A DNA stretch of 63,216 bases, counting the filler, from Circinaria calcarea (Eukaryota): NCBI GenBank assembly GCA_051942165.1. It is 10 parts of 10 records of this genome, joined end to end, with 100 filler letters (N's around TTAATTAATTAA, not from the genome) between each part and the next. Parts side by side here need not be neighbours in the genome. Positions count along the whole stretch, not along the records: positions 25,361 to 31,591 come from JAVECS010001634.1; 9 more parts are not named here. One strand, 5' to 3'. The position numbers were made by a program, and so were the translations under genes. Of the stretch, positions 6,244 through 31,591 are shown in pieces; position 1 is the first letter of the stretch; each line of letters opens with the position of its first letter. A model generated the notes under the pieces. The model searched no databases. It saw only the letters and a program-made list of their open reading frames with translations, and was not told the DNA's origin.

Positions 6244-6343
6244 NNNNNNNNNNNNNNNNNNNNNNNNNNNNNNNNNNNNNNNNNNNNTTAATTAATTAAN
6301 NNNNNNNNNNNNNNNNNNNNNNNNNNNNNNNNNNNNNNNNNNN
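6244..6343. other. Artificial contig linker
   Basis: N44-TTAATTAATTAA-N44 (six-frame stop spacer). Confidence 0.99.
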
Positions 6344-23047: not shown

Positions 23048-25260
23048 AGCACTACAAGTCCACTGTAATGGTGTTTAATCACGTTGGTTTATGTATTTAC
23101 TACATTTGATGGAGGAGATTCTGATATTACCCAAGGATGATTATCTTCCATGTCACGTGCTTGACGCGCTTTGATCAACGCGCTTTTCCAGCCACCAGTC
23201 AAGAACACAACATTTGGATTTCCCTCAGCATCATCCCACATCCACAACAAACTCATTGACTACTCTCATCTCAAACGTTCAATAGCATCGACGCTTCAAG
23301 ACGATTGCCGGACCTGCAATTACGCTCACCTCACCATGAATCGCATCTACACCTCGCTCATGACCTTGAACTACCCAAGTCTCGCTTCCAGCACAGTCTC
23401 TTCTCCACCAACTCTCTCGCTCGTTATTGAGCAACACAAAGAAAGCAGCACACCTTCCCTACAGTTCCCCGACTCTCATCTTCCAGCCTTGCGCAAGGAA
23501 TGTCTAAACGCCCCTCGTACACACCTGCTTACCTTATATGGGCACTGTTTCTCGGACCTCGCAGCATGGCTTCGTATAGTTACAGTATTCCTTATCTGGA
23601 ACGCTGCAGTCGCAAGATTGTAAAGGGTAATACGAGAAGGATGAGTTTCGGAACTTAACCCTAAATATTCGTCGGTCCCTTCTCCTTTGGGAAAGGAAAG
23701 TCTTGCGGTTATAGTTGTCAACCCTCTGACTACCTTCTTGTTATCCTCTTTCTGAGCTCTTCGCATGATCAGCTTGGATCTTGGAGATATGGAAGCCAAA
23801 GGAGAGCATGACGTCCAGAGTCCTTCGGACACTGAAATGGCTTTACTATGCGCCGAAATTGGTCAGATCTTCACATGGAGACGCGCCACGGTATCTCCTG
23901 CTGGACACCTACTCTGATTATAGCGGATGCTTCGCTTGATTTGTGGCGTGATTGATGAACAAGGAAGGCATCAGGTGGCATCGGTCGGGCGGCTTCTCGT
24001 AAGCTTGCCTTTTGGATCTTCGAGGACTTGTCTTGAACCCCACTTGGTCACTCATGCTTTGTATATATACATTTTCGATCCTGACAAAACCAGAAACTTC
24101 CATAATCGAGGATCTGGAGACTTTGCTATCGGTTTCCTTGTTACACGCTACGATTCTCCAGTGGATCTCTCCAACCTTGGCGACGTTCTCGTTTTATGAA
24201 AGAGCTACGAGCACGTCAAGTACAACATACTTTGCATACAAAAGGGCTGCAGTGCAGCATGTATATCATCTTGGCTCTCGGTCAATTGTGCAAAGTGGAT
24301 CCACTTGCCGGAACCGTATATATCCCAAGCTTTCAGATGCTCTCTGAGCCAAAGTGGCAGATAAATGCGTAGCAAGGTCCTCGTGCTTACAAATGGATAT
24401 GCATCTGCATTGTGGCCGGCCCTCCAGATTGTTACTACTTCAGTGCAGTACTGGTAGGGCCAATGGCATGACGTCTCGCTCCGGGTAGCTCTGGATCTTA
24501 CAAGAAACTAGCTAAGATGATGGAGATCCACCTGTCGTTGCGTGTGACGAGGGGATTGAAGCAGATGTTATGTTTTCAGATTGTAGTACGAGCATGGATT
24601 GGGTTAAGTAAGGTACAAACGTACACACTCAGCAGAGCAGAGATAGACGGTTTTGGCGGTGGAGATGTCCAGTACCGATCTCCTATTAGCTGAAGGCTCT
24701 AGCAGCCTTTGTTATCCCTGATCTCCACTCCTTTTCAATCACGTCGTCTATTTGACGAGGCCCAATCACGAAGCCTACATCCCGGCATCAGCCAATGGTG
24801 TAGTTGTCTCTTCAAAGACATGTCCCAATCAGCCGCATTAATCACCTCCTCGTGTGGTCAGCACACGAGTCGAAGGTGAGCGCTGACATTTAAGTCTTCT
24901 TAGCCCTCACCGGCCAGGTCGACGCCTATCCTTCCTACGGGGAGATGGGAGCGGTTTTTGGTGATGTCCTTTGTCCGCTTAGCCACTGCCCTTCTGTTGT
25001 TCCGAAAGGACTGCGGAAGAGGAAACAAAGACTAGTCTCTGAAGGTACTGCACATCAAAATGAGAGATATTCCTGAGCTTGCAGAAGCAACGGAGTCTTG
25101 GATCCGAGATTTGGGAGTAATGTTTGGTCTTTTAGGCTCAATGATACGTGGTGTTTGTGATTGGTGAGGGAGCCAGTTAGTGGAATGAGGGCATCGACAA
25201 ACTTAAAGTCTCGAGGGCCAAAGTCGATGAGAGAAGTAGCAAGAATTGGTTTTGTGGGAT

Positions 25261-25360: not shown

Positions 25361-25655
25361 TATAAGCTAGAACGAGCGTTGGAATTATTTACAGCTTAGC
25401 AGAATCTTTCCGGGAGCCCGATTAATATAATCGAACAAAGAGTTCCTGGTCTTATCTAATTTCTGAACTCGCCACGGAGGTCGGGTTAGTGCTGGAAGAA
25501 TCTTATTCTTTATCAATCCGACAGAAGTTGAGCAGTCGCTAATATAAACGCCGATAAGCCCCCCGCTAAAGTTTCTGTCGCAAAGGACGCATCTTTAGAA
25601 CTTAGATAGTTCTAGGCAGCCTAGGCTGGGCCAGGGCAATAATGCTAACAGACGT

Positions 25656-25942
25656 TGTAAATAACGTGAGCAGCTAAAGCCGGGTATGAGGTAGCCAGTT
25701 CAGGCTCCTATCTACTGCGCCCCTGCATTGCCCCATAGCGTTCCCTTTTGCTCCTTTGGTGCTCTCTCGGGGCTATCTCGCTGCTCCCCCCTGCTCACTC
25801 GATGCTCCCTCTGAAGCAGCCCTGCTCCCTTTCCCGATCAAAAACAATAATCGCAAATCCCAGGTTCGGGGTGTATATAATAGATATATATATCGCGAAT
25901 GAAGCCAAACCCTCGATGATAGTCTTATGCCTCCCTTTAACA
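25656..25942. mobile_element. Possible degenerate LTR-like relic
   Basis: TGTAAA...TTAACA near-inverted ends, an internal TATA-rich tract, and a TpA-rich left flank. No target-site duplication seen. Confidence 0.25.
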
Positions 25943-26716
25943 CGGAAAGTCAAGCACTTTAGAGCAGGTAAAAGTTCTTACCGTTGCAATCCAAAAATGG
26001 TTCGTGAGACTTTGAGACTGTATCTCCATTGGCAACAGCGGACCTTAGAGAGCCACGGGAGAGCTCCAGAAGGAGAAGATGTGACGGTCGTTGTCGCTTA
26101 CGTTTGCATAATATCTGTAGGATGGGAAGACTTCCTGTTATCAGTGATATTTGCCTTGTCGAAACCAGAGATAATTATGTAAGTTCATGGCCCACCCTGA
26201 GGACTGTAAATGAACTCGATTAATTATTTAGTATTAACTTCCACGGCTATACGAAAAGGGGAACATGAACTAGTTTTTAAAGTTTAGATTTCCATCGCCT
26301 ACCTAACGTAAAAGTGTGCTATAGTCTAACGTCTTGGAGGGGTGCAGATGTGACGTATACAAAGCAAGGAATAAGAAACTAGCACAAACACCTTTTGACT
26401 TAAGATTATGACTCCATTTTCGTCCAAGTTCCATGCTTGGCAAGTAGCGAGAAGATACTGATACCTAAATTTAGTTTGCTCGGCTCTCATGAACGCACAT
26501 AAGTTCTCCACAGTTCCGTGATTCGGTTACTTTCCCGAGAATAACGTGCTTCGACGTACGACTAGTATCTTCCATACATCGTCTCGCCAGATATACTTTC
26601 CTTGATGAACAGTCAGTAATCTGATAAAGGTGCTCTCCTTGCTTGAAGGCAAACGTAATTCAACTCCAAATCTCCATCACAGAGACAGATATTTGTGTCG
26701 TGCAACCGCTCTGTTC

Positions 26717-28779
26717 TCACTCGACCGTTATGTCCCTTCGTGAAGCCTGCTGATTTGGCAGTAGCTTTGGCTTCGAGCTCGGGATCTTGCGGATCCTTGG
26801 AATAGGCTTAGGCTTCCCTGGAGACTTAGGACTTGACTTCGCGGGCCCCGACGAAGTTTCCCGAGCCGCTTCGAGTGCCTGATTGGTCGTACGCCAACGA
26901 GACATGAAGTCGTCGTGATTTACTACATCACGTTGGTTAATATGCTAGACCAGCATGTCTTCCGTTGGCTGGTGCTCTTACTGTATCCACCACACATTCG
27001 CCTGTTCCCGGTGAAGGCTGTTCTACCATGTAAAAACCTCCAATTATCAAAAACTGGTAAAGTCAACAATCTACAATCCCCCAAACAACCTTGGTTAAAC
27101 TTACTGACCGGTTTCCCTGGCCTCAATGGTTCCCAGTACTCTAAGCTCGGCCGCCGTAAGATCTCGACCCATTTCCTTGCAGCATCATACCACGCGTCCA
27201 GATGTTGTACCGCAATATTTAATGCTGCCCTGTCTTCGTTATTCCATCTTACCTGTAGTACTTCTCCCGTCTTAGGGTGATGGTTCAGCACAGGATACTC
27301 GAATGCAGGATGAATGCGGATCCCTTCATTTCCACTAGCATGGGCCGGTACCGTGGCATTACTAAGTAGATGATGTGCTGCTGGGTCTTCATCTTTGAGA
27401 ATCTGTGCAGCCTTGAACCCATCTACGAGTAGTGACTCGCCGCCACTGCCGTCATTATGTGAGAGAAGATGAAACATTTGTAGGCCGGCAGGTTCGGTGA
27501 AGTAAGTCGTATCAGTGTGAGCTTGCAAGGCAAGATTAGTGTAGGCTGTATCTTTGGAGGAGAGATCGGATGTAAAATCGTAGAACCCGCCTGAAGCCAG
27601 ATATCAGTAAGGACTATGCGTGGTACGCAGTGGTCGACATACCATAGTGCGTTTGACGTATAAAAGCTATGCGTTCTAGTAGTAATTTGGTAGCTGATGG
27701 AGTGGGCGGGCAGTGATCTACGTAAGAGAAGCCGTACTGCGCCTATGAAAGCGTGAGTGGGACGTAGTATGAAGAGGTGGCAAGGCTGACAATCGAGTTT
27801 GTCCACTTTGCTACTCCTTTCTCGGAGCTCATCACTTCTTCGTAATCTATTGTTGGGGGACCATTACGCCCAACATCGTCAATCCAATATGTCCTACATC
27901 CGATAAGCACGTAACAACATGGAAGGAGGTTATCTCACCTTCGTATAAACTGATTCTCTCCTATAACACGGGCTCGAAACCACTCCCAGCTGTAGAAACT
28001 CTGATGACCGTCATTTTGCCCTTTGTCGTCAGTTCTCAGGTTATTCAAGGGAGAAATATGATCATACATGTAACTGCAAGACCATCTGTACTATCATGAG
28101 CCTCCTTAACTCTTATGTTGCGTGGAATCTTTATATACGAAAAATGTTAGTTAAAAATACAGTTACATTCTTGAAACTATGAAAGGTAGGTCATTGTTTG
28201 AAAGCCAAACATCAAAATATTCACAGACAACTGGAGTACTCAATTTATCAAGGCCAAAAGACATGACGAAGTCTAGTTACCGAGACTTACTGCAAACGTG
28301 TCTAGCAGCCGCTGTTTTGTCTTTTCATGAACGCATTCTTTGCACTGGCAGTGGTCTCTGTCAAGTATAACTTTAAGCAATCAGGTTCGCTCAATAGGGC
28401 CTTGGGGCGAAATGTCTTACCTCAAGAATATATTGCTACTGCTCCACATAATCAGCCGAACAGAGTCTTCAAAGAACATATTGCGCACAAGCTAAAGTCT
28501 GGATAATCCGGCCATCTGAGATGAATGTCTTGCCAGGTATCACCAGTCAATCTAGTCTATCCTACCATCAGCCGAGTTTCTGATATACGGACGAATCCAG
28601 CTTGGCCTAACAGGCTGAAAATGTCCCTTTATTGGTTGCCAGTCCGTCTTGCTATTGAAAGCAAATTGTTTGACAGGCCTCTCAGTCGCCTGATCATTTG
28701 TCCAGATGCGACGAGCATGGGACCATGTACGACTTGGAAGACCTTTTACGACCCGGGGCCTAAAGGTAAGAAGAGACAT
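26717..28779 (-). CDS. Trimethyllysine dioxygenase (carnitine biosynthesis; GBBH/TauD-like), multi-exon
   Basis: N-terminal LRDHCQCKECVHEKTKQRLLDTF zinc domain; IRQTHYGGFYDFTSD; HTDTTYFTEPAGLQMFHLL; VRWNNEDR; FDNWRFLHGRTAFTGNRRMCGGYINHDDF. The exact 5' exon boundaries are less certain. Confidence 0.92.
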
Positions 28780-29114
28780 TGAATGGTAGGATCGTTTTCC
28801 CATCCATCATCTGTAGAAAACAAATGTATTTTGGGGTATACAGCTCTATAGACGTTCATGCGGGTCTGAGACATGCATCGAGGGTGTAAAAATTGACCGC
28901 CGAACCCAGTTCATCGGATCACCGTAGCACCCCCTAATCGTGGTGGGAAACGGCCCTGAGACTTGGTAGTTACCACTCATTTGGAGGCGGCACGAAAGCA
29001 ATTTCTACGGTTACTAACTTAACTGGTAAGTGCTCCGAACTTTTCTCGAGAAGTGTCATTGTCTAAATTTGTGATTATTTATTTAATTAAGGAAGAACAT
29101 CATCCTCTACACAG

Positions 29115-29248
29115 GGCACCTTGGCCTAATGGTAAGGCGTTGCTTTCCGGTTGCGTGAATGGCAAAGATTGTGGGGTAGGTACATTCCTCCGCCAACATC
29201 TCGAACAATTATCCTAATCCTCTTCCAGTTCGAGTCCCATAGGTGTCG
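29115..29248 (+). tRNA. tRNA-Arg(CCG) with a canonical anticodon intron (29151-29159) and a 53-nt spliceosomal-type insertion in the T arm (29176-29228)
   Basis: Acceptor stem GGCACCT/AGGTGTC, D arm GCCT-AATGGTA-AGGC, anticodon arm TTGCT-TTCCGG^T-GGCAA, variable loop AGATT, T arm GTGGG^TTCGAGT-CCCAT, discriminator G. Confidence 0.9.
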
Positions 29249-29259
29249 GAATCAGTTCA

Positions 29260-29273
29260 TTTTTGTCCTTTTT
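29260..29273 (+). terminator. Pol III oligo-T terminator of the tRNA gene
   Basis: TTTTT at 29260-29264 and a second T-run at 29269-29273. Confidence 0.75.
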
Positions 29274-29690
29274 GGACGACATTTATATCTTCATGGGAGA
29301 GTTTTTTGTGATGTAAATGATCTTATCCGCAGGGGAAGATGGAGGGAAATTTTTATAATCCCGACCTCATAGAAACAATGCTCCAAAAGAATCATGAAAA
29401 TGACTGCCATAGATGCGGAGGCTGGACCTCCTACGGTCAGAGTTCACAAAGCCATTTCACGTTATCGCACTGAAGTTTTCTGAGTGCCCGCACGGAATCC
29501 ATCCAGGATCAGGATGTATATTGTATTTCAGCCGGCGGGGGTCTAACCCCCTTTATAGGAAGTGGTACTCTACGTAAAACGGTCATCCAATTGCACGCTA
29601 TCTTTGGAGAAGCTATGCTGATAATCTTTAAAGTAACCGAGCAGGCGGTTGCTCAAGAACATATAGCCCCTAATCTAGCTCGACACCTTC

Positions 29691-30847
29691 TAGCTTGCTC
29701 TTACTCCCCACACATTTCATCAATGCCCGTCTGTTACCGAGCATCACTTTCCCTCCCTCAACCCTTGTCAGGTACCTGACCTCTTCCCAGCTATCTTTTA
29801 CTTTCCCAGTCCTCCAGGCCTCTGTCACAAGCTTATCCCCCGGATTCACCGGCGCAGCGAACCTAGCTTAGAATTCCTTGATTTTGGCAGGGTCGCTTCC
29901 ATCGAGTGCTTGCAACAGGCCATGACAGGCAGAACTCCACGAGAATAAGCCGTGCATAATGGCATCGCCAAAACCCATCTGTTGACCCGGCTTAGGGGTC
30001 GCGTGTAAGGGGTTTTAGTCGCAATTCAGCCTTGTCTCTGTAAACCAGAGACTAAATCTTGGGAGGAAAATCTACCGTATCTATAGAGGAGGGCCGACGC
30101 GGTGGTTGTCCGTAGTGTATGTACAGCGTTCGGCTTCTTCCCTTCCGGTGGAGGGAAATTCACAATGTTCGGCCCTTCAATCCATCAATCAGCTCGTACT
30201 CAGACCACTCCTCATCTCCTGAACCTCACTCACCCTTTAGCCCACCCCAATTACCTTGCCCATCGAAGAATACACTTCCTACAGTCCTGGTAAGAATGTC
30301 GCCGCCCTTTTCCACCAGCACCGTCTCCGTCTCCACCATACTCCCTGCCTCTTCCTTGTCATACACCCCTATAATCTTGGTTCGATCTTCAAATATCTTC
30401 CCTTGGCTCGTTGGTGGTAAGGGCTTGAGGAAAGTGAGCAGACGGCTGACCATCAACGACTCGGTCGGGAGTCGAATCTGGGACGTTGGGAATGTTCGTC
30501 AAGACGTCGTGCGGGCGTAGAAGTCAACAAACTCTTGGTCGGCCTGCTTGGAGAGGCTTAAAATTCTCAGGATAATTCGTAGAATGGTGTGGTTAATGGC
30601 GAACTTTTGCGGGATCCTATCGCACCGAGGATGATGGGATATGTTGGAAAGACCCGGAATTTGGGGTGGAGTTCCTAAGAGCGTCAGTGAGCTTTGGCAA
30701 ACAGAAATTGGAGGGGAAACTCCTACATAAAGGAAGTGAAGCTCGTCCGCTGTGCAGCCAGTGCTATTTGCGAACAGTAAGGACATCCCGCTTCAACCAC
30801 GAAACCTTTTGGGAAGGATACTCAAAACCTGCGCCTAGTCCACTCAT
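29691..30847 (-). pseudogene. Disabled peroxisomal MaoC-type enoyl-CoA hydratase/dehydratase
   Basis: MSGLGAGFEYPSQKVSWLKRDV, a frameshift to LLFANSTGCTADELHFLY, and another frameshift at VDGQ. The catalytic motif reads YRLNCD*NPLHA (TAA 30015-30017), with a second stop EF*ARF (29868-29870). One intron donor reads AT instead of GT. A remnant ...GSKSKL PTS1 is present. Confidence 0.88.
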
Positions 30848-31270
30848 CTTGAAGTGGAACTGTGACGTCTTAAGTCTACATCGAGGGCTGAGATACTTCC
30901 AAGTGCAATACGTAGTATGTAATCAGCCCGAGGTGTGGGGTAAGCTCTTAGCAATGCTTGAGCTTTGGGAATATATACCGAGGTCGACCCTCATGCAAAA
31001 CAGCTCTAGAGTACCCATTGCAAATATACCTGCCTGATTGCCCGACCTATAAAAACGCCGTACAATGTAATGGTTTCCACAACACGGAGCTATAGCAAGT
31101 GACGTGGAGGGTAGTCGATGAGGCTCATTCCCCGAAGAAGCTTGAGCACATTTGTCCGTGCGGGCTTCGATAAAATATTTACTTCACCACTCATATGCAT
31201 ATAGTCTACTGTGCTTATACAAGGTCACAAACGTCCCTTTCCCCTTCTGAAGTATACCGAGGAAGAGAGG

Positions 31271-31591
31271 ATGGCTTCTTCCAATAGCTCGCAGTCCGAA
31301 GAGGGACCCGTCTTTTTCTGGATGCCCGACCCCCCGAACGGCTACCTCTCCCAGTGGTATCCATCCCCGTTCCAAGCTCCCACTACAGACCCTTCACTTT
31401 CCACGTCAACGATGACGTTCCACACAACAGAACAGTACATGATGTACCATAAAGCCATCCTTTTCAAGGACACCGAAATTGCAGAAGCAATTATGAAGGC
31501 CACAACACCAAAGAAGCAACAAGCCTTGGGGAAACGGGTGAAGAATTTTGAGGGCAAGGTGTGGAACGAGAATAAAGAGAAGATCGTGGAA
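31271..31591 (+). CDS. NADAR (YbiA/DUF1768)-family protein, 3' truncated
   Basis: VFFW...GYLSQWYPSPF...FHTTEQYMMYHKAILFKD...ATTPKKQQALGKRVKNFEGKVW. Confidence 0.9.

Follow-up and report, generated by a model that had tools for sequence, protein, structure and literature searches.

The window analyzed here, 63,216 nucleotides of DNA from Circinaria calcarea (NCBI GenBank assembly GCA_051942165.1), carries on its plus strand, at 29115-29248, a tRNA-Arg(CCG) gene interrupted by a 9-nt insert beside the anticodon and by a 53-nt insert in the T arm. We consider it likely that this is a working tRNA gene of a filamentous ascomycete whose precursor would need two splicing systems, the spliceosome for the longer insert and the tRNA splicing endonuclease (SEN or TSEN) with its ligase for the shorter one. 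The observations behind this reading are the anatomy of the gene, a spliced form that is a perfect tRNA, the repeated occurrence of such introns across the gene family, and the orthologous gene position. On balance, and with less assurance, we also favor the view that a sizeable share of filamentous-ascomycete tRNA genes (31 of the 108 tRNA-Arg(CCG) loci listed) forms an undescribed spliceosome-dependent class, some members holding up to three introns of two kinds, which standard tRNA finders miss or miscall. Members with introns between mature positions 3 and 4 (3/4) or 7 and 8 (7/8), or with introns that break the internal B-box, would follow a changed promoter logic (intron-internal B-box, upstream elements, or RNA polymerase II, Pol II).

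Anatomy of the tRNA-Arg(CCG) gene

The features of the gene are as follows (all on the plus strand):
29115-29248, plus: tRNA-Arg(CCG) gene, 134 bp, with three exons and two introns (72 nt when mature, plus CCA), from Rfam and from ARAGORN on the spliced form
29115-29150, plus: exon 1, nucleotides 1-37 (5' strand of the acceptor stem, D arm, anticodon CCG at 29147-29149)
29122-29132, plus: A-box TGGCCTAATGG, a motif located in the sequence
29151-29159, plus: canonical tRNA intron, 9 nt, at 37/38, one base 3' of the anticodon
29160-29175, plus: exon 2, nucleotides 38-53 (3' strand of the anticodon stem, variable loop, 5' strand of the T stem)
29176-29228, plus: U2-type (spliceosomal-looking) intron, 53 nt, at 53/54, between G53 and T54
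29227-29237, plus: B-box as the DNA reads, AGTTCGAGTCC, in which the terminal AG of the 53-nt intron stands in for positions 52-53
29229-29248, plus: exon 3, nucleotides 54-73 (T loop, 3' strand of the T stem, 3' strand of the acceptor stem, discriminator G)
29260-29273, plus: two runs of five T's (T5), 11 and 20 nt past the gene, resembling an RNA polymerase III (Pol III) terminator
29074-29090, plus: stretch of A and T only, 25-41 bp upstream of +1

The Rfam tRNA model (RF00005) matches 29115-29248 with 32.4 bits and with unaligned gaps of 13 and 59 bases, and ARAGORN makes no tRNA call on the unspliced window; when both inserts are deleted, it calls a 72-nt tRNA-Arg(CCG). All 21 of 21 stem pairs form in the spliced product, which is identical at 72/72 positions to the intronless homologs L038 and L107, two loci whose flanks are unrelated to those of the window gene. 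A tRNA-Trp(CCA) with an intron at 34/35, called by ARAGORN on a partly spliced form, is ruled out by the intronless homologs. The codon CGG accounts for 39 of the 218 Arg codons in six long open reading frames. The segment 29122-29132 is taken as the A-box by its consensus, and the A/T-only stretch lies where a TATA-like TFIIIB site would be expected.

Directly upstream of the gene (29012-29114, plus strand), TACTAAC is present at 29012, GTAAGT at 29026, and CAG immediately before +1. They may mark an 89-nt intron within a long leader that ends at +1, or may have arisen by chance.

The 53-nt insert resembles an mRNA intron

By its sequence signals, the 53-nt insert is probably a U2-type spliceosomal intron. 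It combines a GTAGGT donor, a CTAAT branch motif with its A at 29217 (-12), a pyrimidine run, and a CAG acceptor, in agreement with the U2-type pattern of a GTRNGT donor, a CTRAY branch near the 3' end, a YAG acceptor, and the size of an mRNA intron. The insert can be shifted by one base, with a G on either side, and reads GT..AG only in the register 29176-29228; a 49-nt register with the donor at 29180 was rejected, the T stem being broken in it. The longest T run inside the insert is 2. The neighboring dioxygenase gene contains five mRNA introns, placed by protein homology, of 47-59 nt and with signals matching those of the tRNA insert.

Introns of the same kind recur among homologous loci

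Homologs were collected by one exact-pattern scan of metagenome contigs, which yielded at least 108 loci. Since the query pattern consisted of the D arm plus the anticodon, introns between positions 8 and 37 are invisible by design. The same pattern gave no matches in viral contigs. The genes were parsed by tRNA structure, with no GT or AG demanded in the 3' half, and the upstream sequence was checked where the 5' acceptor strand was unpaired. Automatic parses at 67-69 proved to be false: ten of them come from genes whose 5' acceptor strand holds an intron, and the other three (L040, L043, L108) have none.

At least one GT..AG insert is present in 31 of the 108 loci listed, one of the 31 being cut by a contig end. 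Including that of the window, there are 25 distinct inserts at nine positions: 3/4 (5), 7/8 (1), 51/52 (1), 52/53 (4), 53/54 (10), and 54/55, 58/59, 59/60, and 66/67 (1 each). All 25 have G5 in the donor and 23 have T6, while a branch motif lies 5-25 nt from the 3' end in 24 of the 25 (mean 4.07, maximum 12 in 2000 shuffles), and 22 are 47-60 nt long. On alignment, the interiors show no similarity to that of the window's insert. Grouped by shared flanks, the 108 loci listed and the window fall into 63 clusters, 19 of them intron-bearing, and beyond the window's own product, three further spliced products are common to intron-bearing and intronless genes. Locus L061 combines three introns, a canonical one of 28 nt and GT-AG introns at 53/54 and 66/67, with a perfect spliced product. 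Introns at 3/4 occur in L003/L037/L064/L071/L079 and in L008/L057/L068/L072, and the 7/8 intron in L009; the first exon of these genes measures just 3 or 7 nt and the A-box is displaced by about 50 bp from +1. In such genes, the start site must be set otherwise.

We interpret these introns as having been gained repeatedly, and close to neutrally, by a conserved tRNA locus, much as fungal U6 genes have gained theirs. Judged from sequence, the feature is real, and the window gene belongs to a recurring group of tRNA genes whose introns are of spliceosomal type, a group that we did not find in print. Given unspliced, 18 of the 31 intron-bearing genes were missed by ARAGORN and two were called tRNA-Pro; because of the missed genes, fungal tRNA sets appear under-annotated, which affects codon-usage and tRNA-gene counts.

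Two further loci are recorded here as observations. The tRNA-Arg(CCG) of L046 ends after position 55 with no 3' half in its flank, and is either a broken copy or part of a chimeric contig. At positions 401-560 of L001, two tRNA-Arg(CCG) genes that differ from each other stand in tandem at a distance of about 130 bp, and each has a canonical intron.

The putative internal promoter and terminator

The A-box, the 9-nt insert, and the B-box at 29227-29237 all lie where the original prediction, made from the sequence alone, had placed them, and the B-box core GTTCRANNC is indeed complete in the unspliced DNA across the 3' junction. The claim that the terminal AG of the insert restores the B-box stands as far as the core is concerned, but at position 52 the intron supplies an A in place of a G; intronless members of the family can have A52 as well. 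Likewise, the expected growth of the distance between the boxes by 53 bp applies to the T-arm insert, and the anticodon intron adds a further 9 bp, so that the start of the A-box and G53 are 106 bp apart here, compared with 44 bp in a gene whose boxes are not separated by an intron. With an A-box, a B-box core, and a T-run terminator after the gene and none within it, Pol III transcription would be the simplest reading for the window gene.

The position of the insert had been regarded as one of few in the T arm at which a GT-AG intron leaves transcription intact. However, 9 of the 16 internal T-arm sites keep a perfect core. When all 25 introns were inserted in silico, the core was perfect at 49/50-53/54 and 61/62-64/65. 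Over the whole range from 44/45 to 72/73, which comprises 29 sites, the core was lost at seven sites only, 54/55-60/61. Any intron ending in AG after G53 restores the core, which makes 53/54 harmless and not special; the B-box is restored as a side effect of a G being followed by an intron with a final AG, and the argument built on it is true without singling out this gene. Nor are core-breaking sites avoided in the homologs listed: natural introns at 54/55, 58/59, and 59/60 account for 3 of the 20 events counted at lineage level, in line with the share of such sites, 7 of the 42 visible ones (binomial p = 1.0). Thirteen of the 20 events, perhaps not all independent, fall in 51/52-53/54, and this clustering may reflect common descent with sliding or a favored G-run.

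The 59/60 intron of L012 breaks the B-box and carries a perfect one of its own near its 5' end, found in none of the 24 other introns and with a frequency of 0.0086 in shuffles, which favors the need for a B-box. The core is intact in 77/77 genes without such an intron among the matches listed, and the degenerate B-box of the L057 group corresponds to a compensated A53-U61 pair. A T5 run follows within 30 nt downstream in 28 of the 31 intron-bearing genes and in 58 of 76 others. Inside the introns, T5 occurs in 0 of 25 (2.4 expected in a test of 24 introns, P = 0.071), an avoidance that is only suggestive. An ab initio set of mRNA introns gave no usable control for T-run avoidance, with 13 candidates (one being the tRNA intron) against 8-9 in shuffled windows, or 2 with a stricter pattern.

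Gene neighborhood and selection

The tRNA gene is flanked by two protein-coding features:
26870-28377, minus: trimethyllysine dioxygenase gene with unmapped 5' end, containing the five homology-supported GT-AG introns of 47-59 nt
29721-30847, minus: MFE-2/MaoC-like hydratase gene, a synteny marker, apparently decayed

The dioxygenase is closest to those of filamentous ascomycetes (one protein; best match Xylona heveae, 62% identity), and its gene stands head-to-head with the tRNA gene. The hydratase copy has three in-frame stops in its aligned part and an apparent frameshift. It is apparently a pseudogene, and the block of hydratase, tRNA, and dioxygenase to which it belongs is conserved. The same hydratase gene also lies downstream of the tRNA in 10 of the 108 loci listed, five with a 3/4 intron and five without such an intron; the 400-bp flanks are too short to show this synteny for the remaining loci. 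One orthologous locus thus occurs in three states with respect to such introns, a pattern that speaks for independent gains. The hydratase has decayed, yet the tRNA exons are unchanged, which favors selection on the tRNA. Judging by the conservation of its exons and by synteny, the gene appears to work and to be under selection, as the original prediction had it, although the B-box argument of that prediction does not show selection. Indices of repeat-induced point mutation gave no clear signal on the tRNA contig.

The anticodon intron and the probable order of splicing

The 9-nt insert was correctly recognized as a canonical tRNA intron: it lies at 37/38, and U32 can form the A-I pair, defined as pairing of N32 with the antepenultimate intron base (PMC10275265, cited throughout from part of its text), as a U-G pair with its antepenultimate G. 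Its shortness, taken earlier as worthy of remark, is ordinary in the family, where 44 of the 108 parsed rows listed have an anticodon intron and 25 of these 44 are 7-11 nt long; A-I pairing is found in 29 of 38 distinct anticodon introns. Both kinds of intron are held by 7 of the 31 intron-bearing loci listed, from which it follows that both come and go independently.

The spliceosome is nuclear. In yeast, SEN reads the mature tRNA domain as a ruler and is cytoplasmic, being found on the mitochondria of budding as well as fission yeast, and the main tRNA exporter, Los1/Xpo-t, binds tRNA tertiary structure (PMC10275265). Taken together, these properties make it likely that the spliceosome acts before the tRNA endonuclease. 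The compartment is a stronger argument for this order than the recognition of the folded tRNA body by TSEN, on which the original prediction had relied; that argument is plausible, but secondary.

In the mechanism that we propose, Pol III would transcribe the gene from the internal A-box and the intron-displaced B-box and stop at the T runs. The nuclear major (U2) spliceosome would then remove the 53-nt intron through a lariat at A29217, joining G53 to U54 and thereby creating the T arm. Now L-shaped, the pre-tRNA would undergo end processing and export, and its 9-nt intron would be taken out by the tRNA splicing endonuclease and ligase. Yeast pre-tRNAs are capped 5-22% of the time (PMC10275265), and capping of pre-tRNAs is one possible route of spliceosome recruitment.

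Points against the proposed reading and alternative explanations

Several results weigh against the two-system reading or soften its support. GT..AG was picked among 1-4 equivalent registers and, for 5' introns, among tied parses, although the counts of G5, T6, and the branch motif are independent of that choice being forced. Stem mismatches number 0 in 315 pairs of 15 distinct spliced products, compared with 3 in 819 pairs of 39 products without such introns (L046, lacking its 3' half, and L065, at a contig end, omitted), but the zero is partly by construction, because the parser maximized stem pairing. The 94 bp between the A- and B-box of the window gene slightly exceed the usual 30-90 bp; yeast U6 works with a distance of about 200 bp (PMC5855946, cited throughout from part of its text). 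A perfect B-box core is absent from 3 of 19 intron-bearing lineages (the L057 group, L041, L044) and from 0 of 44 others (Fisher p = 0.024, a post hoc contrast), and these broken cores, like the 3/4 and 7/8 introns, are awkward for plain Pol III transcription in the homologs concerned. Finally, a folding model with the T-arm intron present still gives pairing of 0.98, 0.74, and 0.83 for the acceptor, D, and anticodon arms.

This last result bears on an alternative in which the two introns leave by the proposed pathways, but without a set order or with the 9-nt intron able to go first. The anticodon arm folds in the model despite the T-arm intron, and human TSEN cuts an isolated anticodon stem-loop with low activity (PMC10275265), which makes the reverse intermediate conceivable. 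We nevertheless think this unlikely, if worth keeping in mind, given the mature-domain ruler and mitochondrial site of yeast SEN and the tertiary structure that Los1/Xpo-t needs for binding; T-stem pairing in the folding model also rises from 0.0 to 0.98 on removal of the 53 nt, which is weak evidence, as the same model misfolds the mature tRNA. A different alternative concerns the polymerase: Pol II might make the precursor, for example from a promoter region shared with the divergent dioxygenase gene, with co-transcriptional splicing, trimming by RNase P and Z, and a B-box kept merely as the T loop. The restriction of degenerate B-boxes to intron-bearing lineages, the separation of the A-box from +1 by the 3/4 and 7/8 introns, and the head-to-head protein gene would fit such a scheme. 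We hold it to be rather improbable, since T5 runs follow nearly all intron-bearing genes (28/31), the B-box-breaking intron of L012 brings a perfect B-box with it, like that of Schizosaccharomyces pombe U6, and the window gene holds every Pol III element.

It is very improbable that the gene is a silent or dead copy hit by an intron-like piece, with CGG decoded by a different copy of tRNA-Arg(CCG) or else by tRNA-Arg(UCG). The decay of the adjacent hydratase gene and the broken family member L046 would suit that explanation, but the exons are identical to those of intronless genes with unrelated flanks, splice signals are retained in many lineages while the interiors have diverged, the gene position is orthologous, and L061 yields its perfect product despite two such introns plus a canonical one. 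Introns at non-canonical tRNA positions do exist (PMC4033280 and the tRNAscan-SE 2.0 preprint, 10.1101/614032, both cited throughout from part of their text), and the T-arm insert could in principle be one that the endonuclease cuts at a bulge-helix-bulge (BHB), as in archaea and Cyanidioschyzon merolae. This is scarcely credible here: in the window insert the central helix forms 2 of 4 pairs (1 of 4 in the slid register) and the flanking helices 0 of 2 and 1 of 2, none of the 25 family introns has the full motif and just one has a 4/4 central helix, and a conserved donor, branch, and acceptor have no role in the endonuclease pathway.

Comparison with known systems

The closest known system is that of the fungal U6 small nuclear RNA (snRNA) genes, whose spliceosomal introns were described in S. 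pombe (Tani and Ohshima, 1989) and surveyed later (Canzler et al., 2016), both as summarized in PMC5855946; S. pombe U6 is a Pol III transcript spliced by the spliceosome (PMC5855946). As in fungal U6, the genes studied here are of the Pol III type with A and B boxes, and their introns have canonical donor, branch, and acceptor signals with unrelated interiors, lie at many positions, and reflect repeated gains with several introns per gene. A B-box inside an intron is also shared, by S. pombe U6 and L012 (PMC5855946). Unlike U6, the tRNA host has also to undergo RNase P/Z processing, export, and splicing by a second system made of protein only, and unlike tRNA, U6 is positioned in the spliceosome's active site, the proposed route of U6 intron gain (PMC5855946). 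Fungal U1, U2, and U5 snRNA and ribosomal RNA (rRNA) genes likewise have spliceosomal introns in stable non-coding RNA (PMC5855946), but they are Pol II or Pol I transcripts, are not tRNAs, and have no internal promoter to disturb.

The canonical eukaryotic tRNA introns, at 37/38 and removed by SEN/TSEN, match the 9-nt insert in position and A-I pair (PMC10275265), whereas the 53-nt insert lies at the wrong position and has conserved terminal motifs. Archaeal and C. merolae BHB introns offer a precedent for extra introns at many cloverleaf positions, up to three per gene, but they are defined by the BHB and cut by the endonuclease (PMC4033280), a structure that the inserts described here lack. 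The tRNAscan-SE 2.0 preprint limits eukaryotic tRNA genes to one intron (10.1101/614032), and reviews, as far as their available text goes, hold that tRNA splicing does not involve the spliceosome and that the introns of eukaryotic tRNAs are single and confined to 37/38 (including PMC10275265 and 10.1101/614032). The literature searched, where mentions in supplements may be missed, yielded no account of a tRNA gene with a natural spliceosomal intron; the nearest phrase match was 'non-spliceosomal tRNA introns'. Koehrer, Vogel, and Domdey reportedly showed in 1990, in EMBO J, that an engineered yeast SUP6 tRNA with a pre-mRNA intron gives a pre-tRNA spliced by the spliceosome in vivo. That case is artificial, with the intron at the anticodon loop, whereas the genes described here are natural.

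If splicing of the inserts follows their signals, the spliceosome handles natural tRNAs. These would then offer a small native substrate for studying by what means a Pol III transcript is recognized by the spliceosome in the absence of the Pol II C-terminal domain, as well as the origin of new spliceosomal introns, with at least five separate gain regions in one conserved 72-nt locus. Should the promoter-changed genes be real, the tRNA supply for a codon would be tied to spliceosome activity.

Other features of the window

The window joins ten assembly pieces of about 6.2 kb each with N spacers that begin at 6244, 12586, 18925, 25261, 31592, 37922, 44248, 50572, and 56895, and adjacency across spacers is meaningless. 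The tRNA gene lies in the piece at 25361-31591 (JAVECS010001634.1). A different assembly piece contains a partial Ascomycota telomerase RNA (RF02462, 39.9 bits) at 24949-25037 on the plus strand.
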